A stretch of 55,737 nucleotides of DNA from Chrysochromulina tobinii. Taxonomy: Eukaryota. Positions within the stretch are counted from its first letter, which is position 1. Every line of letters starts with the position of its first letter. Positions 1,673 through 48,046 of this stretch are shown piece after piece. The stretch covers positions 1-55,737 of the forward strand of contig JWZX01003112.1 of the NCBI GenBank assembly GCA_001275005.1, read 5' to 3'. The notes beneath the pieces are model-generated. The model ran no database searches, was not told the origin of the DNA, and saw only the letters and a program-made list of their open reading frames with translations. The position numbers and the translations under genes were made by a program.

Positions 1673-2742
1673 GTGCGTGCGACCGAGGAGACTCTGGCGA
1701 TGATGGCGCGTCTAAAGAGGCGCATGGAGACCGAGGACGTTTGGGACCAGACAGCGTACAATGAGGAGATGTGGTACGCCCCGCTCCCTAGTACCTCGGC
1801 AACTCAGCATGCATGTGCTCCCCACGGCGACCCGTTCCGTTCCCCACAGGTACGCCGCGCTCCCCGGCGTGCAGAGCCACGGCGTCTCCGTGCGTGTGAT
1901 GAACTACTTTTGCAACATGAACTCGAAGACGCTCTTCCGCTTCATGCTCGACGACGCAACCCTCATGGCGAGGCACCGGCCAGTCTCCATCCACATCAAC
2001 TACCACCCAGAGAAGCTGCCGCGCATGGAAGATGTCTTCCAGCATTTCTACGGCGCCGCGGACGACGTCGATCTCGGCGCCGGGCTCGGTCTGCCGACGA
2101 AGCGGAACGCGAGCGGCGGGCTGTACGCGTGGCATTGGGGCGTGGGGCTCAAAGCCGGGAAAGCGTGCCGTGAGGCCAGCCGCACTCCGGGGGCCTCGGG
2201 CAGCTCGCTCGCAGAGCGCATCCAGGCAGCGGGCGGCAAGGCAGTCTGGTCGGGGATCAAGGTACTTGGCATCTGATGGCATCTGATGGCATCTGATGGC
2301 ATCTGATGGCATCTGATGGCATCTGATGGCAACTGATGGCAACTGATGGCAACTGATGGCAACTGATGGCAACTGATGGTAACTGATGGCAACTGATGGC
2401 AACTGATGGCAACTGATGGCAACTGATGGCAACTGATGGCAACTGATGGCAACTGATGGCAACTGATGGCAACTGATGGCAACTGATGGTAACTGGTTGC
2501 ATCTGATTTCATCGGATTGTTCCCTTCATCAGGGCCTCCAGTTCCTCTCGGGAGGAACGCTCAAGACGCCGTGGGGAATAGGCCAATGGGGTCGCGTGCG
2601 CAGCATGCCCGGCGACGTGCTCTTTGCGGACTTCATTGGCCAGCAGCATGTGGTGCGCCTGAGCCCTGCAGGCTGGCCCACGCTGGTCTCGACGCGCTGC
2701 GCCGACTTTGAGAACGTCACAGTGACCGTCGAGCAAGGCTGA
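1673..2742 (+). CDS. C-terminal half of an RRA-like arabinosyltransferase (nucleotide-diphospho-sugar transferase, GT77)
   Basis: WDQTAYNEEMWY, MNYFCNMNSKTLF and PVSIHINYHPEKLPRM resemble the plant RRA C-terminal motifs. Introns at 1774-1849 and 2262-2532. No N-terminal exons visible. Confidence 0.75.
1774..1849 (+). mobile_element. 76-nt introner-like intron
   Basis: GT-AG intron with about 9 mismatches in 76 nt to the intron unit at 8224-8299 (-) in DIS3. Confidence 0.7.
2268..2495. repeat. Intronic 10-nt tandem repeat (ATCTGATGGC / AACTGATGGC)n
   Basis: More than 20 visible tandem copies filling the intron. Confidence 0.95.
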
Positions 2743-2880
2743 TGTGCGCGACCGTAAAAGAAATCACGCTAGACGTTTAGAAAGCTGTAGAATTTGTATG
2801 CGGTCCCCAGGCCCTAAGTGACCGTTCACAAGAAAGCCCCACAAAAAATTCGTTGGGAGATCATTCACACGTGAGTTCAC

Positions 2881-3583
2881 ATGAAAGATTCCGTCGCGAT
2901 GCTTGTCAGCTCTTTGACGAGAGCCACAGTTCCTCCGATGCGCACACAGCGTACCGCAGTCGCGATGAGTCGACTACCGGACGAGAGACCGCTGGAAGCA
3001 AAAGTCATCGATCTCGTCATCTCAAGTTTCAGCGTCCTGTTCCTGCCTATCATCGCGGTCGTGGGCCTCTCCCTCGCCGCTGCGACAGGCCGATGGGACG
3101 GTGGCGAGCTCCGAATCGGTGCTCCGTCTCGTGCAGAGCGCATGTCGAAGCCAACGGCCGAAAGGCCCGTGCTCCCTCCCGTTTTGCTTCTCTCGAGCAG
3201 CCAGGATCCGGTGCTCAGTGACCTGCAGGACGGCCCCGCAGCCATGCTATCGAAGCCTGCTGCGGAGCAGCAGCGTCAAGAAGGATTGCAAGCCCTCGAA
3301 GATGAACGCCTGGTCACCTGCAGAGCCTCGCAAGACTTTGATCAGGCATGCCGCTTCGCGGTGCACCAGCGATCCTCCCAGCGTCTTCCTCTCCGCGCGC
3401 TCGTGACGCCCCCCGAACAAACCTTCCCGCGCTCCCCTCCGGACGCAGTGCTTCTTCTTTGGATCCTCCGACGCCATCGACTCCCGGCGCATGATGGAAG
3501 GCTCCGGGTCCCTCTCGTTCTCGCGCCTTGGCGATCCGAGGACGACCGAGTTGCGACCGCCGCTTCGAATCCCGACGTGGTAG
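2881..3583 (+). CDS. Hypothetical protein with one hydrophobic segment
   Basis: ORF from 2881. A probable GC-AG intron at 3346-3448 joins FDQ|CFFFGS and the frame ends IPTW-stop at 3583. Confidence 0.5.
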
Positions 3584-3833
3584 GATCGATTTCGCTTCAG
3601 CGTGGTCGCGTAAATGACGCCGCGATCAGCATGAGAGCGTATTCGAGTCGCACTGTTCGGCTGTGCTTGGGCTTGAACGCGTTTCAACACGCTAAACGCG
3701 CGCAACTCGTCCGAGCGCGGCAGCTCATGTGCGTCTAGCGAGTTCACTCGAGCGGAGTTCGATTATTTCTCAAAAGTGGTGACCGAAGGCGTCGTCGGCA
3801 AGCTCGAAGCTGACCGTGACGCGTTTCACACAT

Positions 3834-5854
3834 TCATGCGAGTTCTCGTGTGGAAGCTATCAGGGTCTCCTTTTCAAGCAAGTAGCGCTGCCACCGGCCG
3901 ACCGCGTAGCCGAGATAGTCAAAGTCGTCTGGCCCGCCTCCGCCGCCGGCGTCAGCCTCGGCCAGCGCTGTGGTGAGCGCCCAGAGGATGTTCCACAGGT
4001 GAGCGACAAGCCCCCAGCCACGCGCCCATTCGGCCACAAGGGCCTCCGACTCGACCTCGACCTCCGCGTCCGAGATCCCAGGGAGGTGAGCGCGCACGTA
4101 CGCGCGCGCAAAGTCGCGTCGGTCGCTCTCGGTGGGTTCACGTTCCCAATCCCACGAGCCATCCTCCTCCACGAAGGCGCATTCAAGGAAGAAGTTGGCG
4201 ACGTCGAACGCACTCGGGCCTACATCGGCAAACTCAGCGTCGATCAGGCGTAAGCTGCCGCCCGCGGCGGCTGGCAGTTGCAGAAGGTTGAGGGCGTGCA
4301 CGTCCTTATGGATGATGGTGCTCTTAGTGGGCGCCACCACACCCTCCTGCGAAACCCATTGCACCTCTGCCATCAGCGCCTTGCGAACGGGCAGAGAGGG
4401 AGGCACGTGCGGGCCCCAATCTCCGTCCAATCTCCGTCCAATCTCCGTCCAATCTCCGGGGAGTGCCGCAGCCCACGCCTCCATTTCGGTCCAAAGTCGA
4501 GCTTTGTCCATCTCGGTCCATCTCGGTCCATCTCCCTCCATCTCGGTCCAAAGTCGAGCTTTGTCCGCATCGTCCACGGCGACGTCAGCGTCGGCCGGCA
4601 GCAACGGGCAGGCGTGCAGCCGACCCATCAGCGCCGCGATCAGTCCCCTGTACGGCGCCTGCATCATCTGAGAAAAGCGCAACGGATGGCCGTCGATCCA
4701 CTCCTCCACGTGGCCATGGCCGCCCTGATGAGGGAGGCAATCAAGCGGATGAGAGAGGCAATCAGAGGCCATCAGTGGATGAGAGAAGTCATTAGAGGCC
4801 ATGAGGTACCTGAGGAGGGAGGCAATCAGAGGCCATCAGAGGCCATCAACGGGCCGTCAGAGGCACTCAGCGGCACTCAGCGGCACAATCAGAGGCCCAC
4901 GCGTACCGGCAGCGCATAGAGCAGCCGCTTGCATAGCGCGCCGTCGGGCGCCACGGCTGCGAGGTGGTCCATCAGCCGGCGCTCGCGCTCGCGGTTCGTC
5001 AGCTTCGCGTTCCCCTCTCCTGTACCGTACAACTTGAGCACGGACCCGCCGCCCGCTAGTCGAAAGCTCACGTTGTTGAGACACCTGCAATCATAATGCA
5101 ATCAGCATGCAATCAGCATGCATTCAGCATGCAATCAGCATGCAATCACGTTGTTGAGACCACCGGCAATGCGAGAGCTCGCGCGGCAGAAATGGCCCTT
5201 GCCGCCGCCTCGAGGAGAGCCGCCGAGGAGGCGCACGACCTGCTCGTGCTGCTCGGCCGTCTCGGGCGATTTGTGCCCGCGCGCGAACACGTCCGCCCTC
5301 ATGTCGTGCGCATGCTGCACGAGCTCGATGGCCGCGTCCGCCGACAGGTCGAGCAGGGCACCAACGAGGCATGCACACACAATGCCCGAGCGGCCGTGGC
5401 CGCCCATGCAGTGGACTAGGAGCACACCGCCCGCCGCGATGCGCGCGAGGCTCTCCTCAAGCAACCCACGCAGCTGCTCGTCATCCGCAACGACGCCATA
5501 ATCCGGGATCGGGAAGTGCTGCCAGCTGATCGGAACGTGCGTCGTCGCATCCGCGTCCGGGTTGCGGGTGCTCACGCCGAGCGGTTGGGCGTGCCGCAAC
5601 TCGCCAGGCGGCAGAGTGCCGAGGTACGGTGGGAGCGAAGGCAGCTCCTCGTAGGGCTGCAGGCACACGATGTGCGAGACACCAGCCTCAAGGACGGCGT
5701 CACGTATCGACAGCCCGAGCGAGGGATCGGAGGCGCCCGGGTAGCCCGCGTGCACGAGCGTGCCGCCGATGAGCCAGTTGGCCGTGGGGAAACCCGGGAT
5801 AGCAGCGGCGCCTGCCTTGTCCTTCCAGTGAGTGTCGGCGTGAGGTGCGGCCAT
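3834..5854 (-). CDS. Dual-specificity phosphatase fused to a choline/ethanolamine kinase-like domain
   Basis: HFPIPD and VHCMGGHGRSG (CX5R) are followed by GGLNNV..VLKLYG, HKDVHALNLL and LIDAEFA..FDVANFFLE. Introns at ~5085-5163 and 4725-4906. Confidence 0.75.
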
Positions 5855-5986
5855 GCGTCGCTTATATGCGAGCCAAAAAAGGAACGAGCATGAAGGCAGT
5901 TACGACTAACCGATTGGGCCTTGCGCCCTGAAACTTGCCATCACGTTTTGTCCAAATTAGGGGGATTCATCGTGGTTCCTTCGCGG

Positions 5987-6737
5987 ATGCTCTCCGATGG
6001 CTCGCCGATGAGCGATCGCGAGTTCCTCGCTGTGCACGGCGTCCAGGAGGCGCTGGCCGCGGCGGTCTCCGAGATTTTAAGCACCCGCCCCTCTAATCCC
6101 ATCCTGGCTATCCGCGACATTCTGATCGCCAAGGAGGCGGCAAGGGCACTCTCAGAGGGCCTCGGCGAGATGGGCACCGACCCCAATTGGCAGTTCAAGT
6201 ACAGCAAGCGCCGAAATGCCTACGGGATGGGGATTTACGCCGAGGTGCGCGTTGCCCACACCGCGCCGTTTGCTTGCGAGTGCCGCGCCGCGGGGAGATG
6301 CGCCACACAACTCGTGCGCCACACAACAGATGCCGACTGCTCGTTCACACGTCCTGCAGGAGGATATTCCAGCGGGATCCCTCGTCTGGCGCTTCGAGCT
6401 TGGCGTGTCCGCGTCCGAGTACTCCACCGAGGAGTGCATGCAAGCCAAGCTCGCGACCCTGTCGGTCGAGGAGGCGACCGAGCTGCTCGACCACACCTAC
6501 GTGAGGCAGGGCCGCATCTTCAATCCACACCTCGATGGGCCGCTCATCAACCACTCACTGGAGCCCAATTGCTCTGTGAGGGCCGGTGACTCGGAGTCGG
6601 GCTCGTATGCGATCCGTGACATCAAGAAGGGTGAGGAGATCACTGAGAACTACAACAGCTACGATGCCAAGAAGGACTGGCCTCGCTGGTACGTCAATCT
6701 GATGGAATCCCACGGCATCATGGATGACTACTACTGA
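5987..6737 (+). CDS. SET-domain protein with an N-terminal Dpy-30/RIIa-like dimerisation motif
   Basis: GMGIYAE|EDIPAG, INHSLEPNC and AIRDIKKGEEITENY. N-terminus FLAVHGVQEALAAAVSEILSTRPSNPI. Intron at ~6246-6359. Confidence 0.85.
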
Positions 6738-7528
6738 GGCCACGGGGCGTCGGCATAGGGCAGTACGTAGCAGTCATATCGAGCTGTCAGCGGCATTGGG
6801 GGTTCGAGAGTTTACGATGTAGTTGAAGTGATCCTGAGTGTTGCATATTGATATTAGTTAGATTCACGTTTGTCGTTTCAACCGCTCGACCGCGCACGGG
6901 ATTTTAATTTGATCGTGCCCGCCCGCGCGCGCCCCCGGCCGGGCGCCCGGGCCGTAACCTCTGGGCGCCACCGTATCAACACTTAAGGTTTTAGAGAGAA
7001 GAGACGGTGCGGAGTGCGAGTCAGGAGACGATCCAGGACCACATCCGCCCCCGCCGCCCCCGGCCGACCGCATTGCGGGTTTGCGGCCGACCCCGCCCGG
7101 CCGGTCCGAATGACGTCGTGTACCGTACTGTGAGTCCGTGGCGCCGCCAGCGGCACGCGAACGACGACGGTCGACGCGGCCGATCAGGCCGGCTAACGTC
7201 ACCGCCGCATCGCATACACATACAGTCCAGTACAGGCTACATCTGCGGGCCTCACCCGTCCGGCAAGCTCCACGCGCCATGGCCACGCGCGCCCCCTGTA
7301 CAGAACGACTCATCGGCTAGTTCACATTCACAGTCACGCATCGGCTAGTTCAGACATCGTCGTGTGACCTGTAGGATTCGTCAATTCGTCAATTCGGTAT
7401 GTGGAGGATCCCTACGACGCGCGTCTTGCGTCTTCGCAACTCCAGCCTGCCGCTTGCGTCGACCGCTTGCGCACTCAGCTCGCCCTACGCCCTGGGCAGT
7501 ACGGGCTAGTTCACATTCACAGCTCGCG

Positions 7529-10500
7529 CTAGGCCCTGGGCAGTACGGGCTCGATGATGGCGAGCTGCAGCTTGGGCCGATGGGCGCGGCTCTGGTCCAC
7601 CGAGATGGCCACGCGCACCTTGTCATAGTCGGAGCGTGGGGAGATGAGGGGGCGCCGTGGTGAGCACTTGCATGCAAGGCAGGTCATCAGTGGCAATCAA
7701 CGCACCTTGTCAAAGGTTCGAAGCGTGCAGCCGGGAGCGATGAGCGCGTCCGTCTTCGCGTCGTACGCAAACGCGCTGCGCTCGCCTCGGGCCGCCACGT
7801 ACACAATCCCCTCGATGCCGTACCTCGGGACCAGAACGACGACGCCATTCTCGCGCACCTGTGGGGAAGGGAGTAGGGCGCCGTGGTGAGCACATGCATG
7901 CACGAGAACGACGACGCCATTCTCGCGCACCTTGATCACGTACGCGTCCTCCTCGGTCGCCTTGGCGCGGAAGAAGATGAGCGTGTGCAGCGCGACCGAA
8001 GCCCGCCCGGCGTGCTGCGCGAGCGTGTGTCGCTGATTGAGGTTGTCAATCAGCTCGGTCGCGGCGCTCGTGTCGAGGGCTTCGCGTGGAACCGCTTCCC
8101 ACTGGATGATGGCCGCGAGGAGCCGGTGCGCCATCTGGTCCGCGTACCTGTGGGGAAGGGAGGAGGGCGCCGTGGTGAGCACCTGCATGCTGAGCTGCCG
8201 AGGTACTGGGGAGCGGGGCGTACCTGTGGGGAAGGGAGGAGGGCGCCGTGGTGAGCACGTGCATGCTGAGCTGCCGAGGTACTAGGGAGCGCGGCGTACC
8301 GGCGGATGGGCGAGGTGAAGTGCGTGTAGATGGGCGCGGCGAGGCCATAGTGCAAGTAGTCGGCGGGGGTGAGCGTGCCCGACGAGAAGTACCGTGCTTG
8401 CTGCATCGAGCGTGTCGCCAGGATGCGCACGAGCTTATTGAAGTACGGATCAGCGGGCTTGGTGCATGCATCGAGCGAGTCCGAGAGCGCGAAGGATGAG
8501 CTCGCATCAAGTTCGAAGCCGTGCGCGCGCAGCGCGTGGTTGAGGCCGTCGAAGGCGCCGGGGGGCGGCGGCGGGTGGCGGCGCAGGATCGCGTGCTGGG
8601 GGAAGGCCTGCGCTATCTGCCTCGCAACTGTGATGTTGGCGAGGAGCATAAACTCTTCGGCCATCGAGTTGGCCTCCTTGAGATTGTACATCGCCACATC
8701 TGTGGGGTCGCGGGTCTCCGAGTCGAGCACGAAGCGCACCTGTGGGGAGACGCGAGGGCGCGCCGTAAGTGAGCACTTGCATGCCGAGGGCCGCGGGTCT
8801 CCGAGTCGAGCACAAAGCGCACCTGTGGGGAGACGCGGGGGCGCGCCGTAGTGAGCACTTGCATGCCGAGGGCCGCGGGTCTCCGAGTCGAGCACGGAAG
8901 CGCACCTCGGGGGACGCGAGGGAGAGGGCACCGCTCGCCGCCCGCTTCGCCTTGAGCGCCTTCGCGAGCCGATTGAGCGTGCGCAGCGACTCGGTCAGAG
9001 GGTCAACGAGACGCGCGTCGTCCATCCGGAGCTGAGCCTGTTCACACGAGAGGGCCGCGACGGATCAGACGCACTCAGACGCACTCAGACGCAATCAGAC
9101 GCAATCAGTGGTCATCACTCTACCTGTTCATACGAGAGCGCCGCGACGGATCGGATGACCGTCTTCGCCACCTTGGTGCTGATCACATTCGCCTCGTGGT
9201 CGACGACCCAGATGACCGAGAAGGCGAGGCGATCGACCTTCTCATGAAGTGAGCAGAGGTCCTCGCCCAGCCGCTTGGGCACCTGTGGGGACGCGGGCGC
9301 GATCGGGTGCAATCAGTACGCCCATCCTATCGTCATCGGATGCAATCAGTGCCCATCCGATCGTCATCGGGTGCAATCAGTGAATATGAAATGGCCATGT
9401 CACTGTGAATATGAAATGGTCGCCACCAGCGAGGCGATCACGCGCGTACCATGTCGATGCGCCGATTGACGAGGTACACGGTCGTGGCTCGTGCGGCCGC
9501 CTCGGCATCGATGGGCGTCCCCGGCCTTGATGAAATGGCCCACGTCCGCAATGTGCACTCCCACCTCGTACCGCGGTGCGCCGTCTTGAGCGCTCGGCAG
9601 CGCGCGCGCATGCAGGGCGTCGTCGATGTCGACGCACCCGGGAGGGTCGACCGAGCACACGAGAGTGTGCCCGTCCTCACGCAGATCCAATCTGCGCGCG
9701 ATCTCGTCCGCCGGGATCGTCCACCCTTTGACCGGTAGGCACGATTGCACCTGCCATCAGCGGATGGGCGCCGTTTCGGTCATGAGGGTGTCACTCAGTG
9801 TCCATCGAGGGCGCTCCACTGCCTTCCGAAGCATCAGCAAGCCATGAAGAACAGGCCATCGGGAGAGCCCCCTCGGACGAGCGCACCTGTGCCGAGAAGG
9901 GCGCGGTGTTAACCTCATGCTCCATCAGGATCGCCTCCGATTCCGCATTCGTATCGCCCACCACCCCGAGAGTGCGCACGTAGTGACCGGTAGGGTAGCG
10001 GTGATCGGGCTCCCAAAAGTCGAGCGCCACCACGAGCAGCTTCCCACCGAGACTCTCCGCCTGGCGCGTGCTGCTCAACGAGGAGAGAGGATGCCACGCG
10101 GGGCCATCAGCATGCAACGCGGGGCCATCAGCATGCGATGAGGGAGGCCATCTGCATGCCACGCGGGGCCATCAGCAAGGGGCAATCAGCATGCAATGAG
10201 GGAGGTCATCAGCATGCAATCCATGGGCCCATTGATGGGCCATTGATGGGGCGCTCGCCTGATGTTGATGCGCGGGACCCGCTGGTCTAGTGGCTCCGCC
10301 AAATAATTGCCCCCGAGCCCACTATCAGGATCGAGCACGCACACGTACGGCCGCCAGCCACGCTTGACCACGCCGACCACCACCCCACACGCCCGCTTGC
10401 CCCTCGAGCCCGCACGCGCGCCGCTGCTGGGCGCCGAGGACCCAGGGCCGCCGCCGCCACTACCGCCGCCGCCACATCCATTGGGCGCCGCGGCGCCTGC

Positions 10501-16543: not shown

Positions 16544-19500
16544 TCAAGCATGGAATATGGAAAACCGTTGTCGGGGTTGCGCTCCGTCTACGCTGCTCGC
16601 CGTCGAGGGCGCCGTCGCGGGCGCCGTCGCCTGCTCGCCCTGCTGCACGCCTCTCAAGGACTGCCGGTGGCGCAGACCCTGAAGGACCTCCTCGCGCGGC
16701 ACCCCCGCGGCGATCAACTCAACCGCGTCGGGGTGGCTCGCAAGCAGTTGGTCATCGAGCGCCGTACCGAGCACTCCGTTCACGGCTTCACCGAAGGCCG
16801 ACGGCGGCGGCCGCCGCTTCTGCTTGGGCCTCTCGCTGCCGTCCTCATCGGCGACGCGCGCCGAGCGAGGCTGTCCCGGCGGGTCAGAGCGGAAGCTCAC
16901 GACGGGCGTTCGTTTGGAGGCGGCGTCGGTGCCCATGGCCGCCACGAGCGCCTTGCCCCTGGTCTCGTTGCCGCTTTGGCCAGTGCCGCTTTGGACGGTG
17001 ACGCGGCGCGGGATGGCGCCGCCCGCAATAGAGCCATCCGAGTTGGCGTCAGCGATGATGCGAAGCTTGCGGACGGCACGGCCAGCACCCTCCTTCCACA
17101 ACTTGGCCGCGGCCATGCCCTCCGTACAATCGACGTCGTCGACTGCGAGGATGAGGTCGCCCGCGTGCAATCCCGCCTTGGACGCCGGCGAGTTAGGCTC
17201 CACAGCAGTCACCTTGTTGAATTCGTTCACGGTCAAGCCGACCATTTCGTTCGGTTTCAGTTGCAGCGTGAGGCTCTTCTCGAGCCCTACGCACGTATTG
17301 GACCGTTGGAACATGCTGGCGCGTGAGCCCGATTTGGGCAGCCAGGGACGCACCCTGTCCGCGTGGACTTGGAATTGGGAGCCCGCCCCCAATAATTGGA
17401 CGACGTACATGTTCGTGGCGGGATCGAAGGCGTCGACGACGGCGCGCTTCTCGTCGCCGCCACTGCGCGTCACCAGGACGGTGCTGCCTACCTGCGGCCC
17501 TGCGGGGCGCACCTTGTCAGCGGTTGCGGACACGAGGATCCCCGTGCCCTCGAGAAGAATGTTGTAGCGATTGGTCACCTTGTCAAAGTCTTGGACGATG
17601 CCGCGCTTCTCGTCGCCATTGCTGCGCGTCACGATGATCGTTGCCTGGGTGGCCGGGCGCATCTCCCTGTCCCTGCACTGCTTAAGCTTCCCGGAGCCGA
17701 TCCTATCGAGATCCACCATGTAGTAGTTCTTGGACGCATCGTACTGCGTCACAAAGGCGATGCACTCGTCCCCGCTGCTGCGCTTCACGTACACCCTGTC
17801 GCCGACCTTGTATGCCGGCCCGGGCGCACGCGGCGGCGCCAGAGTCCTCGGCTCATCGGGATTGGAACTTGGCTGGCGCGACGAGGTCGGCCCGAAGAGG
17901 TTCCTTGTAGACCCTCCGAAGAAGTTCACGCGGCTCATGCCCAAATTAGGCAGTCGAGGAGTGCCGCGCGAGCTCTCGCCGCCAGATCGCGATCTCATCG
18001 AGGCGCGAGATCGGAGCTGGCCGATGAGGGCCGCGCGCTGCGCGCGTAGCCGCGCGGCCGTCGCCTCGAGCGACTTTTGGTTCCGGCGCTGCTCGCGGCG
18101 CACGAGGATCTGCACGAGCACGATGAAGGTGGCCGAGGCGATGAAGGGGATGGCAGTGATGAAGAGCAAGCGCAGCCATCCGGACGTGTTTCGGCTTTGG
18201 ATGCAGAGCGGTTCTCCATTAGCGAGAGGCTCGTAGGCGCCCTCGCAGGTCGGGTACCTGATGAGGGAGGTCATCATGGACAATCAGGGTCACTCAGGGT
18301 GGATCGGGTACCTGATGAGGGAGGTCATCAACGGCAATCAGGGTCACTCAGGGAGGATCGGGTACCTGATGAGGGAGGTCATCAACGGTAATCAGGGTCA
18401 CTCAGGGAGGATCGGGTACCTGATGAGGGAGGTCATCATGGACAATCAGGGTCACTCAGGGTGGATCGGGTACCTGATGAGGGAGGTGATCATGAAGGCA
18501 ATCGGTCGCAATCCTCCTGATGAGGAAGGCAATCGGTCGCAATCCTCCTGATGAGGAAGGCAATCGGTCGCAATCCTCCTGATGAGGAAGGCAATCGGTC
18601 GCAATCCTCAGCGGCAATTGCGTACAGAAAGTTGAGCCCTTCGAGGTCGTCGACCGAGAGGCACGTGCGAACACGGTGAAGCGACCTCGAAAACATGATG
18701 GATTCGGTGACGACCTCCACCGTCGTCGCGGCCAACCGCACGTGGTCGAGCGGATAGGAACAAGTCGTTGCGTTCATCCTCTGATTGGCCTTTAGGTTGT
18801 GTCGAGACTCCACGTCGGGGTGGTGGAAGCCAAGCACGTGGCCCACCTCGTGTGCGATCGCGGACTCGAAGCCGTGGCATTCCCAACAAGGTGTGAAGAT
18901 GCGGTAATAGAACATCGGTGCGAAGATGATGAAGAAGATCGCCAAGAGCAGTGGGATTGTGGGCATGACGGACACGTACTCCATCACCGCCGTGCACCGA
19001 CGGCTGCCGCACGTCAGATGCTCCTCGCTGCCGTGAGAGTTGACCGCCATCGACGAGCCTCCTTGGTTCAGCCCGGACAGGAGGTTCCGGAACGTCTTCG
19101 AGAGTTCCAAGTTCTTCGACGGGGATCCGGCCGCCGTTGCGAGCCTGGCGGGCTTCATCGTGAACATCAGATTGCTCGACGGGCCGGCGGGTGGCGACGG
19201 CGGCGGCGAGATCGAGATCGAGCTCAGAGGGCTGCTCGAGCCGGCAGGTGGCGATGGCGGCGGCGAGGCAGCGCGCGCCGGCTCGTGCTGCGCCTTCCTC
19301 TCCCTCATCGACGTTCGCGAAGCAGCATCGAGCTCGCCAATCTCGGACTCGTCCGTCCCTTTCGGGAGGCAGCACGCGGCGGTAAGGCTCATAAGCCCGA
19401 GGTAGAGCACGTAGAGCACGGCCAAGCAGAAGAGCACGCCGCACACGATCCGCGCGATCAGCACCACGTCCACGTCCTCGCCCTGCCACATGTGGAAGTA

Positions 19501-20414: not shown

Positions 20415-22803
20415 ATGGCTTACATCGATGCGAGCGGTCTGCCGGACCCATTGCCCTTCCGCGTGGCGGGCGTCGGCTCTCTTCCAGGCTCGCCGCGGCA
20501 CGGCAAGGCTGCACCACCACCGACGGCATCGCCACGCTCGACGCGCTACGTGTGGAACCGGAGCGGCATGTGGGTCGAGGAGGAGCCCGCCCTAATGGGC
20601 GGCCACAAGATGCCGACCGCGCCCAAGTCGGGCAGCACGGTGCGCCGCGGAAGCCACCGCGCGCACATGCTGTCGCGCTCCGATCCAGCGGCCGCACCAC
20701 TGCCCAAGGAAAGCAGCAGCCTGCCGCCCATCTCGGGCATGCTCGAGGGAGGCGCGACAACGGAGACCGAGCTATGGACGGAGGTGGTGCTGCCCGCGGT
20801 GACGTGGCTGTACGGCTGGGTCGAGTGGCAGGTGGACTCGAGGCACCATAGGATGCCCTCGATCGTCGAGCGTGAGCACCGTACCGCCTTCAGCCTCGCG
20901 ACCGAGCGTGTCGCCGATGCGATCCGCGCGACGCCCGACCGGCTCGCCGCATGCATTTGGCGAGCGATGGTGGCGCTGCTGAGCCACTTTGTGGAGCGGG
21001 TGTACCCGGTCTTTGGCGCCTTCGAGCGGATGCAGCTCGAGCTGCAGCACACGCGCTCCCGGCTCGATGAACTCCTCGCCGCCCGCGGAGTCGCGGTGGA
21101 CGCATTCGACCAAAGTAGGAAGAACGACCCTCCAAACACGGCGGCGGAGGCGGCGGCAGACGAGGCGGCAGCAGCGCGCGCGTCCCTGCAAACCCCCGAC
21201 GGACCGCGCGCCGCGAACGTCAGCGGCGGCGTCGCCGTCTCGACCCTCATCGGGGCGCCCGACGCGTCGTACCGGGCGTCTGACAGTGGGCGAAACCGCC
21301 GGTTGAGCAGCCACGAGTTCCACAGCGACGCCGAGCTCCGTGCGGCGCATGCGGAGATCGACGAGCTCAAGCAGAAGCTGCTTGGGGCACAGCGCGACCT
21401 CCTCATCGAACGCAACCAGAAGGCGTATGCCGAGCAGAGGCTGTCGAAGCAGAAGGCAGTACAGTTCGCCGAGGGCGGCGGTCTGAGCACCAGCAGCGCG
21501 CCTGGGGCACCGCCTGGGCTGCATCGTCAGAATACGCTCCGGCTAATCGAGGACGATGTGGTGGAGCGGCTCGAGGCTGAGCTTGACGAGGAGCGCAAGC
21601 AGCGACGGGTCCTCGAGAAGCTCAAGAAGCACCTCGCCGCGCAGATGGGCGACGCGTACATGCAGCGGCTGCTCATGACGCTCGGAGCGGAGGATGGCGC
21701 CGTCGCGGGCGCCGATGAGGAGGGCGCTGGCGCCGACGCGCGCGCCGACGTGGGCACCCAGGTGGACGAGGTCGAGATTGAATCTGGAGGTGCGGTGCTC
21801 GAGATCGAATCTGGAGGTGCGGAGGGCGAGGAGGAGGGCGACGACGAGGGCGTCGAGGGCGAGGAGGAGAGATTCGATCTCGATCTCGGCACCTCCAGAT
21901 TCGATCTCGAGGGCGAGGAGGCGAGCAGCGGCGGCGGAGCGGAGCGCCGTGGTGGGCGCAAGGGACGTTACCGGTCAGATGTGCGCAGCTACAATCCGAA
22001 AGGTCAGAAGAAGGCTCTGTCTCTGGGCAGCGGCGGCGAAGGTGTTCTTCGGCTGCAAGGGGCTGTGGTGCACTCGACGATCCGCATCATGTACGACGCG
22101 AAGCTCAAGCGGGATGCCGTCGACGAGCTCGAGCATCGGACCAAGGTGGAGCTCGGCGCCTTCGTGCTTGATTGGTACTCCCAGCGCCACGGGATCCATC
22201 AGATAGCGAGCAAGCACCTGCAGCAGTTCCGAGAGGGCGTGAAGAGTTCCACCGTCGCCGGCTCACGCCGCACCTTCCTCTTCGGCGCCTTCGCGGGCTA
22301 CTTCCCTTTTTTGGGCGACACGTCACTCACGATGCGCGAGCCGACGACGCTCCAGGTGAGGCAGCGTTGATTGCCTCTGATGACCGACCTTGCATGCATG
22401 TGCTCACCACAGCGCTCTCGACCTGCTCCGGCGACGCTCCAGTTCTTTTTGGACTTTGAGCGCAAGGCGGTGCGCGCGGCGGGCGGCGACGAGCGCACGT
22501 CGGAGGACAGCTCGATTTGGCTACCAATCGACCGCGCCGTCGAGCTGATGCGCAACGAGTTCCGTAACGCGCGCGCGCCCGACATCGCGAAGGCGACGCT
22601 CGAGATCGAGGATCTCGTGCGCCTGCCGAACGAGATTATCGAGTACTCGAAACGGTTCAGTTCCATGATGGCCGCCGGTGAGTCGAGCGCCAAGGCTGGC
22701 GCCGCGGGCGTCGCTGCCGCCAAGGCCGACGTGTCCGCCCGACTCAGTGGATGTACGGTCGCTGCGCCCTCCTCCGCCGCCTCCGCCGCCCGCTCCTCCG
22801 CCG

Positions 22804-24964: not shown

Positions 24965-27397
24965 TTAAGCCCTGAGATTCGAATCGGAGTGCTCGAGCCT
25001 TGCGACGAGCGCGGGCGCGTGCTGAGCGAGCGTCGCCGCATTCAGCTTGCCAAGAGTCGCGACCGCAGCCTTACGCACACTCGACACGGAGTCCTCGAGC
25101 CTTGCGACGAGGGCGGGCGCGTACTGAGCGAGCGTCGCCGCATCCAGCTGGCCAAGAGTCGAGACCACCGCACAACGCACACCCGAATCGGAGTCCTCGA
25201 GCCTTGCGACGAGCGCGGGCGCGTGCTGAGCGAGCGTCGCCGCATCCAGCTGGCCAAGAGTCGAGACCGCCGCCTCACGCACACTCCAATAGGTGTGCAC
25301 GAGCCTTGCAACGAGCGCGGGCGCGTGCTGAGCGAGCGTCGCCACATCCAGCTGGCCAAGAGTCGAGACCGCCGCCTCACGCACATCCCAATCGGAGTCC
25401 TCGAGCCTTGCGACGAGCGCGGGCGCGTGCGGAGCGAGCGTCGCCGCATCCAGCTTGCCAAGAGTCGAGACCGCCGCACAACGCACATGCCAATCGGAGT
25501 CCTTGAGCCTTGCGACGAGCACGGTCGCGTGCTGAGCGAGCGTCGCCGCATCCAGCTGGCCAAGAGTCGAGACCGCCGCACAACGCACACTCCACACGGA
25601 GTCCTCGAGCCTTGCGAGGATCGCGGGCGCGTGCTGAGCGAGCGTCGCCGCATCCAGCTGGCCAAGAGTCGAGACCGCCGCACAACGCACATCCGAATCC
25701 GAGTCCTCGAGCCTTGCGACGAGCGCGGGCGCGTGCGGAGCGAGCGTCGCCGCATTCAGCTTGCCAAGAGTCGAGACCGCCGCCTTACGCACACCCGACT
25801 CGGAGTGCTCGAGCCTTGCGAGGATCGCGGGCGCGTGCTGAGCGAGCGTCGCCGCATCCAGCTTGCCTAGAAGCGAGACCACCGCACAACGCACACCCCA
25901 ATCGGAGTGCTCGAGCCTTGCGACGAGCGCGGGCGCGTGCGGAGCGAGCGTCGCCGCATCCAGCTTGCCAAGAGTCGAGACCGCCGCCGTACGCACATCC
26001 GAATCAGAGTGCTCGAGCCTTGCGAGAATCGCGGGAGCGTGCCAATCGGAGTCCTCGAGCATTGCGAGAATCGCGGGCGCGTGCTGAGCGAGCGTCGCCG
26101 CATCCAGCTTGCCAAGAGTCGAGACCGCCGCCTTACGCACACTCCACACGGAGTCCTCGAGCCTTGCGAGGAGCGCGGGCGCGTGCTGAGCGAGCGTCGC
26201 CGCATTCAGCTTGCCAAGAGTCGAGACCGCAGCCTTACGCACGTCCGTCTCGGAGTGCTCGAGCCTTGCGAGGATCGCGGGCGCGTGCTGAGCGAGCGTC
26301 GCCACATCCAGCTGGCCAAGAGTCGAGACCGCCGCCGTACGCACATCAGAATCGGAGTCCTCGAGCCTTGCGAGGAGCGCGGGCGCGTGCTGAGCGAGCG
26401 TCGCCGCATCCAGCTGGCCAAGAGTCGAGACCGCCGCACAACGCACATCCGAATCCGAGTCCTCGAGCCTTGCGAGGATCGCGGGCGCGTGCTGAGCGAG
26501 CGTCGCCGCATTCAGCTTGCCAAGTGTCAAGACCGCCGCCTTACGCACACCCGACTCGGAGTGCTCGAGCCTTGCGACGAGCGCGGGCGCGTGCGGAGCG
26601 AGCGTCGCCGCATCCAGCTGGCCAAGAGTCGAGACCGCCGCCTCACGCACATCCGTCTCGGAGTCCTCGAGCCTTGCGACGAGCGCGGGCGCGTGCTGAG
26701 CGAGCGTCGCCGCATCCAGCTTGCCAAGAGTCGAGACCGCCGCCTTACGCACACTCCACACGGAGTCCTCGAGCCTTGCGAGGATCGCGGGCGCGTGCTG
26801 AGCGAGCGTCGCCGCATTCAGCTTGCCAAGTGTCGAGACCGCCGCCTCACGCACATCCCAATCGGAGTCCTCGAGCCTTGCGACGAGCGCGGGCGCGTGC
26901 GGAGCGAGCGTCGCCGCATCAAGCTGGCCAAGAGTCGAGACCGCCTCCCTACGCACACTCCAATCGGAGTGCTCGAGCCTTGCGAGCGCCTCGACAACCT
27001 CCGGTGTGAATGCGGCCATCGTATATTCAAGCGCCGTCGCCGCCGCTTTTCGCTCCTCGCCAGCGGCGACGGCCTCCTCGGCTTTTTCTCCGGCTGGTTG
27101 CAAGTGCATGAACAACGAGAGCCACTCGGAGACTCCTTGCCGCGGATAGAACCGCAGCCGCTCGTTCAACTGTTTGTTCTCACCCCTTAATCTCTCGACC
27201 TCGTCCCTGAGCCGTTCGACATCCTTGCGCAGCTTCTCGAGTTCTTCTGAACAGTCTGCGCTGTTCGCGGCAACCGTTGGTGGCGCCGCGCTGGGGCTGT
27301 CACCGGCGGCGCAAGTCTCCGAACCGAGCGCCGAGTCCTGCTCCAGCAGGGTCAAGCCCTTGACACTGCTCGACAACGCGCGGAAGCTATGCTGCAT
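24965..27397 (-). CDS. Coiled-coil plus 34-aa HEAT-like tandem-repeat protein (copy A, no HET domain)
   Basis: Intronless 810-aa ORF with 19 full repeats of consensus EDSDSDVRxAAVSTLGxLDAATLAQHAPAILARL, plus one internally deleted unit and one terminal partial unit. Confidence 0.88.
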   Translation of the reverse strand: MQHSFRALSSSVKGLTLLEQDSALGSETCAAGDSPSAAPPTVAANSADCSEELEKLRKDVERLRDEVERLRGENKQLNERLRFYPRQGVSEWLSLFMHLQPAGEKAEEAVAAGEERKAAATALEYTMAAFTPEVVEALARLEHSDWSVRREAVSTLGQLDAATLAPHAPALVARLEDSDWDVREAAVSTLGKLNAATLAQHAPAILARLEDSVWSVRKAAVSTLGKLDAATLAQHAPALVARLEDSETDVREAAVSTLGQLDAATLAPHAPALVARLEHSESGVRKAAVLTLGKLNAATLAQHAPAILARLEDSDSDVRCAAVSTLGQLDAATLAQHAPALLARLEDSDSDVRTAAVSTLGQLDVATLAQHAPAILARLEHSETDVRKAAVSTLGKLNAATLAQHAPALLARLEDSVWSVRKAAVSTLGKLDAATLAQHAPAILAMLEDSDWHAPAILARLEHSDSDVRTAAVSTLGKLDAATLAPHAPALVARLEHSDWGVRCAVVSLLGKLDAATLAQHAPAILARLEHSESGVRKAAVSTLGKLNAATLAPHAPALVARLEDSDSDVRCAAVSTLGQLDAATLAQHAPAILARLEDSVWSVRCAAVSTLGQLDAATLAQHATVLVARLKDSDWHVRCAAVSTLGKLDAATLAPHAPALVARLEDSDWDVREAAVSTLGQLDVATLAQHAPALVARLVHTYWSVREAAVSTLGQLDAATLAQHAPALVARLEDSDSGVRCAVVSTLGQLDAATLAQYAPALVARLEDSVSSVRKAAVATLGKLNAATLAQHAPALVARLEHSDSNLRA

Positions 27398-32596: not shown

Positions 32597-35500
32597 CTGG
32601 AGCTGGTGCACGTGCTGGCTCTGGTCGTCCATATTAGGCACGCGCCTCTCATGTCTCACGCAAACGAGCGCACCTGGCCGCCGCGGCCGCCGCCGCCGCC
32701 GCCGCGGCCCCCTTTGGCTGCGGCGCCCTTGGCCGCGCCTTTGCCCTTTCCCTTTCCGCCTTTGCCCTTTCCGCCTTTGCCCTTGCCAGCACCTCCCTTG
32801 CCAGCCCCTCCCTTGGCGCCGGCCGCGCCGTCGACGGTGATGATGGCAATCGTGGACATGAGGGAGAAAGCGCTCATCGGGATGATCGAGAAGCTCACCC
32901 CTAGGCGGGCCGCGGGCCGCAAGCCGCTGCCGCTGCCCTCGAGGGGGGCGCTCTCAGCCCCCCGTGACGAAACCGCGCCCCGTGACGAAACCGCCTCCCG
33001 TGACGAAACCGCGCCCCGTGATGGTGTGGCCGCCACCGCCCCGTGTGTCTTCAGCTGCCCGCCGTGCCCAGATGGCACGCCCGCCTCCGCCGCCTCCGCC
33101 GCCTCCGCCGCCTCCACCTCCGCCAGCTCCACCAGCTCCGCCTCCGCCTCCCAGTCAAACACCTCCTCGACTGCGGCCACAGCCGCGGCGAGCCCTCGGA
33201 CCACGGCAGCGGCCGCAACGGCCTTAGCCCCCTTGCCCTTCTTGCCGACGAGCTGATGGCGAAGGTCATTAGCGCCCAAGCTCGCGCTCACGGCGCTCCC
33301 CTTGCCGCCCAACACGGCGCTCCCCTTGCCGCCCAACACGGCGCTCCGCCCCTTGGTGCGTCCTCCGCGCGCGTCCGGCTCGTCCTCCTCCTCGTCGTCG
33401 TCGTCGTCCTCGTGTTCGTCAAACGGTTGCTCGCCGTCCTCCTCCTCTTCGTCGTCGTCGCGTCGTCTTAAGCGCACTGCGAACGCAGGCTCGTCCTCGT
33501 CGTCCTCGTCGTCCTCCTCCTCCTCATCCGCTTCCACCTCCTGAGTGTGCTCGTCGTTGCGCGCGAATCCCTTGCCTTTCCCCTTGCCTGGCATCGACGA
33601 CCCCTTGGCACCGGCCGGGGCGTTGTGATGAGCACTTGCATGCATCGACGACCCCTTGGCACCGGCCGCGGCGTTGTGCGGGCGCTGTGCTGAGCTTCGC
33701 GGTGCCGACGGACGTGGCGCCGAAGGGCGCGGCGCCGACGGCGCGGGGGGCGCGGCGCTGTGCCGAGCACCTGGCGCCGTGTTGGGCTCCGGCGCGGGCT
33801 CAGGCACGGGCGCCGTGTTGGGCTCTGTCTCGGCGCTGATATCGTACACGGCGGACGAGAGGGTGAGCCGGATGACGCCCACGGCGGCGCGTAGCACCTG
33901 ATGAGGGAGGCAATCAGAGGTCATCAGGGTGAGGAGAGTCGGATGACGCCCACGGCGGCGCGTAGCACTTGGGAGCCATGATCGTGCCCTAATGAGGGAG
34001 GCAATCACATGCAATCACATGCAATCAATGCAATCACATGCAATCAGGCCATCACCTGGGAGCCATGATCGTGCCCTAATGAGGGAGGCAATCACATGCA
34101 ATCACATGCAATCACACGCAATCAGGCCATCACCTGGGAGCCATGATCGTGCCCTAATGAGGGAGGCAATCACATGCAATCACATGCAATCAGGCCATCA
34201 CTTGGGAGCCATGATCGTGCCCTAATGAGGGAGGCAATCACATGCAATCACATGCAATCAGGCCATCACCTGGGAGCCATGATCGTGCCCTAGGATCGCC
34301 TCGCCGTTCACAGCGACCAGGAGCTGCCCAGGCAAGATCTCGCCCGACTCGGCGGCGATGCAGCCTGGCACGACCGTCAAGATCGTCGGCGCGCTCTGGC
34401 TGTTCCCCTTGAGAGTGATCCCAAGTCGCGAGCTCGCCGTGGGCTTCTTCAGCTTGATGTTCACAGTGCCAGCCGCCCAGGGGTTGGCAGGTGGCGGCGC
34501 TGCCTCGGTGGCGGCGGCCGGCGCTGCCGCGGCGGTGCTGGCGGCGCCCGGCACGGCGCCCGCCATGAGTCCTTTGCCCACACCTTTGCCAACTCCCTTG
34601 CCCGCACCCTTGGCACCTTTCCCTGTCGACACCGACGCCTCGGCGGCGGCGCTCGTGACGGCGCTCGAGGCCGGCGCCTCCGACGAGGCGCCGTACCGGG
34701 CACTCTTGGGCCCTCCCTTGGGCACCGCGCCGTTCTGGGCGGCCGCTTCGACGGCCGTTGGCGCCGAGTGCAGCCCGAGGCCTTTCGCGCCTCTGACGAA
34801 ACCCTTGGCGCCCGCGACGGCGCCGACGGATGGCGCCGTACCGGGCACGGCGGCCGCCGCCCCGTCCACCGGCGGCAAGGTGCCATCCTCGACGCGCCGG
34901 CGCGCCTCGGTGAGCGCGAGCGTGTCGGCTTGCTTGAGCCACTCCTGCCACGTGGCAGAGGGTCATCAGCGGTCATCAGGGGCAATCAGCGGTCATCAGG
35001 GGCAATCAGCGGTCATCAGAGGCACTCAGCGCACCTGCCACGTGGCGGGCGCGCCGCCCGTCACGCCCTTGCCACCCCTGCCGCCCTTGCCCTTGCCAAG
35101 GAACGCACCGACCTTGCCCTCGGCGTCGAGCGCCGTCGCGGGCGCCTCGGCGAGCCGCCCACCCTTGCCTTTGGCGAACGCTTCGCCTTTGCCGAGGCGC
35201 GGCACGGGCGCACCGGCCTCGTCGCCGCCTTTGGCCGTCGCTGGGGCTGCAGCTCGCTCCGCGGCCGCACGAGCTGCAGCCGAGATCGAGATCGACATCT
35301 CGTCGGCGTCTCCGGCGAGCAGCTTCTCCTTTTCGAGCCGCAACCGCTCATTCTCCGCGCGGACGCGCCGAAGCTCTTCCCGCAGCTCCGCATTGGCAGA
35401 CATGCCGGAGGGCACATCCCCTCCTAGGTTCTCGAGCATTTGTTGCCGGGCGAAGGCCGCCGCGCCCTTGCCCTTGCCGCCGCGCGTACCGGCGCCAGCA

Positions 35501-47943: not shown

Positions 47944-48046
47944 TGTTGACGTCGCCGAGGTAGGCCTTCGCCTCTTCGGTGACGAACAGCCGATTGGACG
48001 CATCATGGTCTGGAAGCGTAACGCATGGCCATGGAGGATAGAGCAT
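47885..48046 (-). pseudogene. N-terminal fragment of a guanylate-binding protein/atlastin-like GTPase
   Basis: LFVTEEAKAYL..VGVVAVAGIYRNGK resembles the GBP P-loop region (VVAIVGLYRTGKS). Truncated by the HEAT array. Confidence 0.6.

Follow-up and report, generated by a model that had tools for sequence, protein, structure and literature searches.

A 76-nt intron shared by two unrelated neighbouring genes of Chrysochromulina tobinii: likely direction and a tentative route of transfer

The RRA-like gene and the RNA-decay gene DIS3 of Chrysochromulina tobinii are unrelated (relatives of the former belong to PF03407, the latter carries an RNB domain), and both contain the same 76-nt intron, for which sequence comparison indicates the RRA-like gene as the likely donor and DIS3 as the recipient. 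Our tentative proposal is that the intron was copied by a microhomology-guided DNA template switch at G-GTACGC into a DIS3 site that was likely intron-free. This is a single traceable event and is not yet demonstrated as a system. The analysis covers contig JWZX01003112.1 (assembly GCA_001275005.1), positions 1-55,737 of the forward strand, referred to throughout as the window, with the following features:

1673..1773, +, RRA-like upstream exon; its final G belongs to the G-GTACGC site
1774..1849, +, putative donor intron in the RRA-like nucleotide-diphospho-sugar transferase gene; 76 nt, phase 2, boundary from protein homology
1850..1865, +, opening of the downstream exon in the RRA-like gene, coding for Y-A-A-L-P; likely source of the 5′ tag of the DIS3 intron
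5610..5637, −, possible (suggestive) linker template; coding exon of a gene lying between RRA-like and DIS3
7859..7930, −, adjacent DIS3 intron of the same core family; 29-nt copy of its own exon; core closest to those of U1 and U2 (2/43 mismatches)
8142..8147, −, first letters of the DIS3 downstream exon, GTACGC; the 7-nt microhomology also takes in the G at 8300
8148..8223, −, DIS3 unit U2; tandem duplicate with 3 differences from U1; missing in one-unit strains
8224..8299, −, DIS3 unit U1; 76 nt; 15 leading nt identical to the RRA-like exon
8740..8905, −, adjacent DIS3 intron of two tandem 83-nt units; 36-nt copy of its own exon

The RRA-like intron (1774-1849, +) and the two DIS3 units (U1, 8299-8224, −; U2, 8223-8148, −) are each 76 nt long and run from GT to AG. 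The initial annotation had reported introns of equal length in two unrelated genes with about 9 differences in 76 positions, and alignment bears this out: U1 and U2 each differ from the RRA-like intron at 9/76 positions, and from one another at 3. Within the window blastn pairs the RRA-like intron with the DIS3 units at E 2e-23, and the pair is the top non-local self-match once one pair of paralogous genes and the 102-nt arrays are excluded. The likeness is gapless over 76/76 columns and ends at the splice sites; the flanks have just G and GTACGC in common, a microhomology of 7 nt, with GTACGC opening the downstream exon of both genes, as had been claimed. Positions 34-76 belong to a general core that exists in many copies. 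Positions 1-33 alone are specific, and with 2/33 mismatches there between the RRA-like and DIS3 introns the similarity is not confined to the core, the outcome that the initial annotation had named as fatal to its account.

The two intron copies lie 6.4 kb apart and are inverted relative to each other, a spacing preserved in a second assembly (L002, L003). In a genome of 59 Mb (the size in a row of the PMC9860276 supplement) this separation has a chance of ~2e-4 for a single random copy, a closeness that is partly ascertained, as the initial comparison could reveal only pairs inside one window. No terminal inverted repeats are evident in the sequence or fold of the 76-mer, and the DIS3 units have no notable stable RNA structure (z -0.50 for U1, -1.53 for U2), for which reason structure was dropped as a mobility signal.

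The direction of transfer is suggested by the 5′ end of the DIS3 intron, which matches the conserved coding exon of the RRA-like gene over 15-16 nt and its own downstream exon over only 6 nt. Positions 1-15 of U1 are exactly those of the RRA-like downstream exon, in agreement with the initial annotation; in locus L005, and likewise in unit 1 of L001, the match reaches 16 nt. From base composition, the 10 nt of the tag that lie past GTACGC would be matched by chance with a probability of ~6e-6. The tag is conserved protein sequence: WYAALPG is identical in P0001, and WWAALP is found in P0004, P0005 and P0014. The spliced RRA-like protein aligns without gaps across the junction with 18/18 relatives, all PF03407; the family is assigned via these relatives, a Pfam search with the 135-aa piece itself having returned no match. 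Sense orientation, also claimed at the outset, is confirmed by RNA contigs for DIS3 and indicated by protein homology alone for the RRA-like intron, whose predicted boundaries have the same source. The assembly appears misjoined near 1500-1526.

The donor intron opens with 15-16 nt copied from the exon that follows it, continues with a 17-nt linker and ends in the 43-nt family core, which includes the acceptor. The linker resembles the exon at 5610-5637 (−) in 23/28 columns, a score equalled by shuffles in 19/1000 cases when the best of the three units is taken over the whole window, and in 3/1000 when limited to the between-gene region, a region picked afterwards. As 64/367 real 35-mers score as high elsewhere, this origin is not counted.

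The 43-nt 3′ part is a genome-wide core, with 14 fuzzy matches in the window and a summed contig depth of 4176, against ~45 in a bin with one core (a rough guide to copy number). Present in many copies at intron 3′ ends together with a target duplication, the core behaves as an introner family. For the complete 76-mer this does not hold: by the threshold of PMC9860276 such a family calls for at least four similar introns in non-paralogous genes, and the 76-mer is found, by exact pattern only, in two genes. Of the six introns in the window that have both the core and a 5′ footprint, five match the exon following them over 15-36 nt (15, 15, 29, 30 and 36 nt), the exception being DIS3 with 6 nt; the target duplication is thus not fixed. 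Another DIS3 intron, at 9449, also uses GTACGC, which is an ordinary donor here. Since introns of this family as a rule have exon-like 5′ ends and GTACGC is an ordinary donor, a shared flank alone proves little.

In DIS3 the insertion site falls at the codons R-R/Y of HFTSPIRRY, in the RNB domain. Two RNA contigs (X13, X14) skip 8142-8293, that is 152 nt sliding to 8148-8299, and hence both DIS3 units are removed together; the DIS3 introns on either side, at distances of 217 and 440 nt, are retained. DNA unitigs from two runs span the U2-U1 junction at single-copy depth (36-40 vs 41-49), which rules out haplotype collapse as the source of the tandem. The tandem units at 8740..8905 (−) show that such doubling is general and extends beyond U1 and U2. 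Single-unit DIS3 alleles are present in L004, L005 and 14 ORFs.

An exact 24-nt pattern from the specific part, scanned against metagenome contigs, matched six loci, 6/6 at the RRA-like or DIS3 gene and none at a third, in a census that diverged copies would escape. None of the 11 further GGTACGC sites in the window carries a copy. The broader claim of the initial annotation, that introns are copied between genes through short homology, stands insofar as the transfer used G-GTACGC, and finds no support with respect to repeated copying to GTACGC sites.

The DIS3 intron is present in 16/16 strain ORFs that reach the site and empty alleles number 0/16, in clusters defined with intron read-in and so biased against empty alleles. 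Orthologs, where the initial annotation proposed to look for empty sites, do supply them: at the protein level, 7/7 ORFs of the other haptophytes in the clade read through the DIS3 site (SH-aLRT 97 in a quick tree, with 6/121 rows omitted for want of the motif). At least five of these seven run into introns elsewhere and look genomic, and the sister row (P0029, 85% identity) is among the intron-less ORFs. Among distant eukaryotes an intron occurs at the same DIS3 codon in 37 clear and 14 ambiguous cases of 118 ORFs, and the site is therefore ancient or a hotspot.

The two copies also appear to exchange sequence. Both derived states, at positions 8 and 16, are present at either locus, in the RRA-like intron as well as in DIS3 alleles, and all four combinations occur, position 8 being donor-type in 7/16 strain DIS3 ORFs. 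These mosaics are drawn from metagenome contigs, of which L001 and L006 are chimeric. An A at position 29 in 2/16 DIS3 alleles is confined to contigs that look chimeric and is not counted; nor is L001 taken as evidence of a genuine inversion, as it is one contig with its junction within 28 shared letters.

In microhomology-mediated break-induced replication (MMBIR) and polymerase-theta end joining (TMEJ), a break is filled by copying nearby DNA, often in inverted orientation, each junction having short homology. The DIS3 intron has these attributes: short homology (7 nt) at the junctions and an inverted template 6.4 kb away. It differs from ordinary templated insertions in that the product is a precise spliced intron within an exon, and the pathway can be assigned only provisionally, from the sequence. 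The mechanism was probably a jump, during DNA repair or replication, at the shared seven-letter site. The donor would have been born in the RRA-like gene in the way usual for its family, when an acceptor-bearing core came to lie beside 15-16 nt duplicated from the target exon, which supplied the GT donor; the footprint is visible and the manner of its making is conjectural. A broken or stalled DIS3 end in G-GTACGC may then have annealed to the identical 5′ letters of the donor intron, with copying that crossed the intron as far as the second GTACGC, where the donor's next exon begins, before going back to DIS3. A direct repeat brackets the donor, so that going in and coming out at one and the same homology would deliver exactly one sense intron. 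Such a copy would keep both splice sites and leave the DIS3 reading frame unbroken. It is spliced in DIS3, and in this strain would later have been doubled, both units being excised jointly; the inverted copies may still swap sequence occasionally.

Copying into an empty site has observations against it. The specific sharing is limited to positions 1-33 and the U1 and U2 cores are nearer the adjacent DIS3 core, which fits equally well a history, possible if rather unlikely, in which an older DIS3 intron of the family (an own-exon copy from GTACGC plus core) had its 5′ half replaced through ectopic gene conversion, the inverted RRA-like intron being the source and G-GTACGC and the 43-nt core the anchors. 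The lack of an empty allele in 16/16 strain ORFs and the intronic state of the codon in distant eukaryotes likewise count against an empty site, and the latter accords with conversion. An older intron there would begin with GTACGC, equal length would follow automatically, exchange between the loci is indicated, and most of the homologous introns reported for fungi in PMC3443670 sit where an intron already was. The U1 and U2 cores are 2/43 from the adjacent DIS3 core and 7/43 from the RRA-like core of the window; however, unit 2 of L001, which adjoins the RRA-like exon, has a consensus-like core (1/43), so that five core differences may be peculiar to the allele in the window. Conversion also requires two events, the site is empty in 7/7 haptophyte-clade ORFs, and an own-exon start is found in no allele of the 16/16 strain ORFs. 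Neither this alternative, nor the direction from RRA-like to DIS3, nor the 6.4-kb proximity figured in the initial annotation.

That annotation offered reverse splicing alongside homology-guided insertion, and it is the DNA homology route that we favour. It is improbable that the excised RRA-like intron was reverse-spliced into DIS3 RNA or DNA, or that a reverse transcriptase switched templates at GTACGC, with the product recombined into the gene. The copy is exactly intron-length and sense, carries both splice sites and has no inverted ends, and an RNA route has been proposed for introners without transposon marks (PMC10996645; PMC3443670). Yet such a route predicts neither the proximity nor the later exchange, there is no notable fold (z -0.5, -1.5), the flanking introns at 217 and 440 nt are retained, and sense orientation is forced in any case by selection and microhomology; reverse splicing leaves the match to the donor's next exon unexplained (ACGC after GT, ~0.006 by composition). 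Far less probable still is that the entire 76-mer is an introner family aimed at G-GTACGC, the longer RRA-like match being secondary. The core is high-copy and introners are described for Chrysochromulina metagenome-assembled genomes and Emiliania in PMC9860276, but the exact-pattern scan found no third locus, 11 other GGTACGC sites of the window are without a copy, and the tag is native RRA-like coding sequence. An assembly artefact, with reads from one locus pasted into the other, is barely credible: against the apparent misjoin near 1500-1526 and two metagenome contigs chimeric at these repeats stand 9 fixed differences, the recurrence of these sequences in L002/L003, DIS3 alleles of a single unit in L004, L005 and 14 ORFs, and RNA junction and DNA unitigs that agree for DIS3.

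Introners, reported also in Chrysochromulina MAGs (PMC9860276), include Symbiodinium and Polarella classes 4/5 in which, as here, a core carries the 3′ splice site, with the duplicated target supplying the 5′ splice site (PMC9860276; bioRxiv 10.1101/2020.10.14.339549; PMC12130899). Their published target duplications are fixed at 3-8 nt, whereas those of the C. tobinii family are variable, at 15-36 nt; and the 76-mer sits at two loci, forms no family and, unlike a transposon end, carries its donor's duplication along. A DNA-transposon introner needs terminal inverted repeats and a fixed short target duplication, neither of which is evident here; fungal introner-like elements, for which an RNA route is proposed, have the stable predicted RNA structure that the DIS3 units lack. 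Intron transposition is likewise the reappearance of a whole existing intron at another position; the review PMC3443670 tabulates 14 cases of it, besides 3 of intron transfer. The latter as defined requires paralogues, which RRA-like and DIS3 are not; the former is usually ascribed there to reverse splicing, whereas proximity, microhomology and origin tag here point to DNA. Daphnia introns gained by double-strand-break repair are also bracketed by a direct repeat of adjacent exon and include parallel gains at the same site; their repeats are 4-12 bp and their filler mostly of unknown source (PMC4202315), while the DIS3 sequence is traced to its source, a complete intron.

A literature search returned no report of this locus or of Chrysochromulina introns carrying another gene's exon tag; a 15-nt core motif did not occur in the portion searched of the PMC9860276 supplement, whose genome list includes C. 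tobinii. The origin of introns free of transposon marks is unsolved mostly because the source cannot be found and the direction cannot be read. Here, for one event, and in an alga with relatives in which intron gain is already known, a coding-sequence tag names the donor and makes direction readable, a rare case of a traceable intron source. Conceivably, though we think it doubtful, family introns, each framed by a duplicate of the exon in which it was born, are ready cassettes: a microhomology switch in and out would copy exactly one functional intron to a nearby gene, with no need of transposase or reverse splicing, a general secondary route of local gain. If so, carried tags would map donor-to-recipient genealogies of introns genome-wide. 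Template switch, 5′ replacement by conversion and reverse splicing predict different genome-wide distances, orientations and empty sites, testable on public Chrysochromulina data.

The core pattern has no match in prokaryote genomes and occurs at one, uninformative locus in viral contigs, where the sequence ends just after the core.

Three 76-nt sequences in the window are homologous:

1774–1849, forward strand: intron of the RRA-like gene, its boundary supported by protein homology
8299–8224, reverse strand: U1, first of two tandem units of a DIS3 intron
8223–8148, reverse strand: U2, the second unit

That similar 76-nt introns reside in two genes, as the initial annotation had it, is borne out: U1 and U2 each differ from the RRA-like intron at 9 positions and from one another at 3, and positions 1–15 of U1 are exactly identical to the RRA-like exon at 1850–1864. 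The RNB domain confirms the identity of DIS3; the other host encodes a PF03407 nucleotide-diphospho-sugar transferase, for which the name RRA, the initial annotation's label, is presumed. Its predicted spliced product aligns without a gap across the junction with 18 of 18 relatives. In DIS3, two RNA contigs both skip 152 nt (placed as a GT–AG intron at 8299–8148), and U1 and U2 thus leave together. DNA unitigs cross the U2/U1 junction at single-copy depth, and an assembly artefact is hardly credible: this is a real, spliced and traceable copy of an intron between genes.

Copies were sought in a metagenome collection with an exact 24-nt pattern from the specific part of the 76-mer (positions 1–33). 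Six loci were recovered, all at the RRA-like gene or DIS3:

L001: DIS3 upstream exon, two units, RRA-like downstream exon
L002 and L003: on the same contig, spaced as in the window
L004 and L005: DIS3, a single unit each
L006: a partly spliced chimera

No copy is present at the 11 other GGTACGC sites in the window, and GTACGC also serves as the donor of another DIS3 intron. The proposal that the 76-mer is copied repeatedly to GTACGC sites is therefore not supported: as far as an exact pattern can tell, the 76-mer does not form a family with a target motif, and a mobile 76-mer appears improbable. L001 reflects either chimeric assembly or an inversion of the 6.4 kb between the copies; spliced, it would yield an in-frame DIS3/RRA-like fusion. 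In L006 (minus strand, ∼1168), a contig that becomes chimeric beyond this point, a U2-type unit directly follows the DIS3 exon, as would result from removal of U1 alone at the inner AG|GT (a recursive-like step).

The remainder of the 76-mer is a 43-nt core (positions 34–76) that recurs 14 times in the window by fuzzy matching and stands at high depth genome-wide. Six window introns combine an exon-like 5′-end, core and acceptor, and five of these match their own next exon, over 15, 15, 29, 30 and 36 nt. For the DIS3 76-mer this own-exon match is limited to 6 nt; 15 nt (16 in L005 and in unit 1 of L001) agree instead with the RRA-like exon. The letters of this tag encode YAALP, identical in P0001, a relative of the RRA-like protein, and partly conserved in other relatives: the tag is thus native to the RRA-like gene. 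The 10 letters past GTACGC have a chance of ∼6e-6 by composition. Taken together, the evidence argues strongly that copying ran from the RRA-like gene to DIS3. A mirror class of introns, in which the 3′-end copies the upstream exon, occurs at 9038–9123 (reverse; 29 nt, 2 mismatches) and 22357–22442 (forward). The exon-copied 5′ part of intron 7859–7930 (reverse) forms a 15-bp hairpin (fold z −3.2).

Prokaryote gene callers read into introns, so that fragment ORFs reveal intron positions. Of the 120 DIS3 fragments listed from 266 matches, 118 fall outside the C. tobinii-like group. Of these, 25 stop directly behind HFTSPIRR, 12 diverge after it with a non-Y residue compatible with a GT donor, 14 diverge after Y (ambiguous), 10 diverge after Y-x-G, 51 read through and 6 lack the motif. 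Among the matches listed, an intron at this codon is common across several distant clades, which makes the codon either an ancient intron position or a hotspot. The initial annotation had suggested a search for empty sites in orthologs, and at the protein level these are seen: each of the 7 other members of a 9-row haptophyte clade (SH-aLRT 97, quick tree) reads through, the sister row P0029 included. P0025, P0029, P0051, P0101 and P0170 look genomic, as their reading enters introns at other places. Among 29 listed of 37 members of the C. tobinii-like cluster, 16 reach the site and none is empty: the RRA-type intron is present in every one, in 14 of them as a single unit. As read from these ORFs, the pattern speaks for an intron that was gained on the C. 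tobinii branch and later doubled in some strains.

The donor intron is bracketed by a direct repeat, and a switch that entered and left at the same short homology would copy exactly one intron. At the DIS3 site this homology is G|GTACGC; its phase is that of the donor site, and the donor lies 6.4 kb away in inverted orientation. A single random copy would land so near with a chance of ∼2e-4 in 59 Mb, a figure softened by the pair having been ascertained within one window. Template switching at the DNA level into an empty DIS3 site is the reading to which we tentatively lean; templated insertion through MMBIR or polymerase theta is a related process. Conversion over an older DIS3 intron is somewhat less likely. 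The U cores differ from the next DIS3 intron at 2 of 43 positions and from the window's RRA-like core at 7 of 43, but five of the latter appear confined to the allele in the window, and the core therefore does not separate gain from overwriting. An RNA route is unlikely. Positions 8 and 16 read G and C in the exon but C and T in the RRA-like intron, and DIS3 alleles show all four combinations (in metagenome contigs, which may be mosaics); a single copying event is thus insufficient. The combinations could stem from repeated exchange or from several copies of the one donor.

Introners in Chrysochromulina MAGs carry 4-bp duplications (PMC9860276), whereas five window introns match their own exon over 15–36 nt; introner classes of Polarella and Symbiodinium show 3–8-nt duplications (10.1101/2020.10.14.339549), and repair-born Daphnia introns 4–12-bp repeats (PMC4202315). 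Intron transposition and transfer (PMC3443670) and reverse splicing (PMC10996645) have been described or proposed; haptophytes go unmentioned in the main text of PMC12130899. In the literature, with supplementary data covered incompletely, we found no published report of an RRA-like to DIS3 intron copy.

Doubling is also seen in other introns here. Whole intron units frequently stand in two or more tandem copies (8740–8905, 7859–7930, 1526–1696, 1061–1208, 18250–18494, 34011–34292), and their number varies by strain: an 83-nt unit is single in L001, L004 and L005 and double in the window, a 72-nt unit double in L005 and single in the window. The last DIS3 intron (7619–7705, reverse) is precisely absent from the genomic loci L004 (∼2001) and L005 (∼1415), whose exons lie ∼1% or less from the window; its 3′-end is an eroded copy of the exon upstream, which points to loss of an older intron between its direct repeats and not to a recent gain. 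Exon 8300–8739 may hold a further polymorphic insertion, for two strain ORFs (P0151, P0166) diverge from DIS3 after SSGTL.

At ∼1440–1526 a BTB/SANBR gene directly precedes the 3′ half of the RRA-like gene, and L002 (1–1240) has the missing 5′ half at the corresponding place: the window is probably misjoined inside a repeat-rich intron. Position 8660 is A in all four runs and G in the window, likely an assembly error or private change. A SET-domain protein encoded in the window shows 100% identity to a C. tobinii protein and 96% to C. parva. Two long arrays of 102-nt units (34 codons), at 24980–27060 and 45070–47970, are ∼90% alike in opposite orientation and are probably repeat-protein genes.
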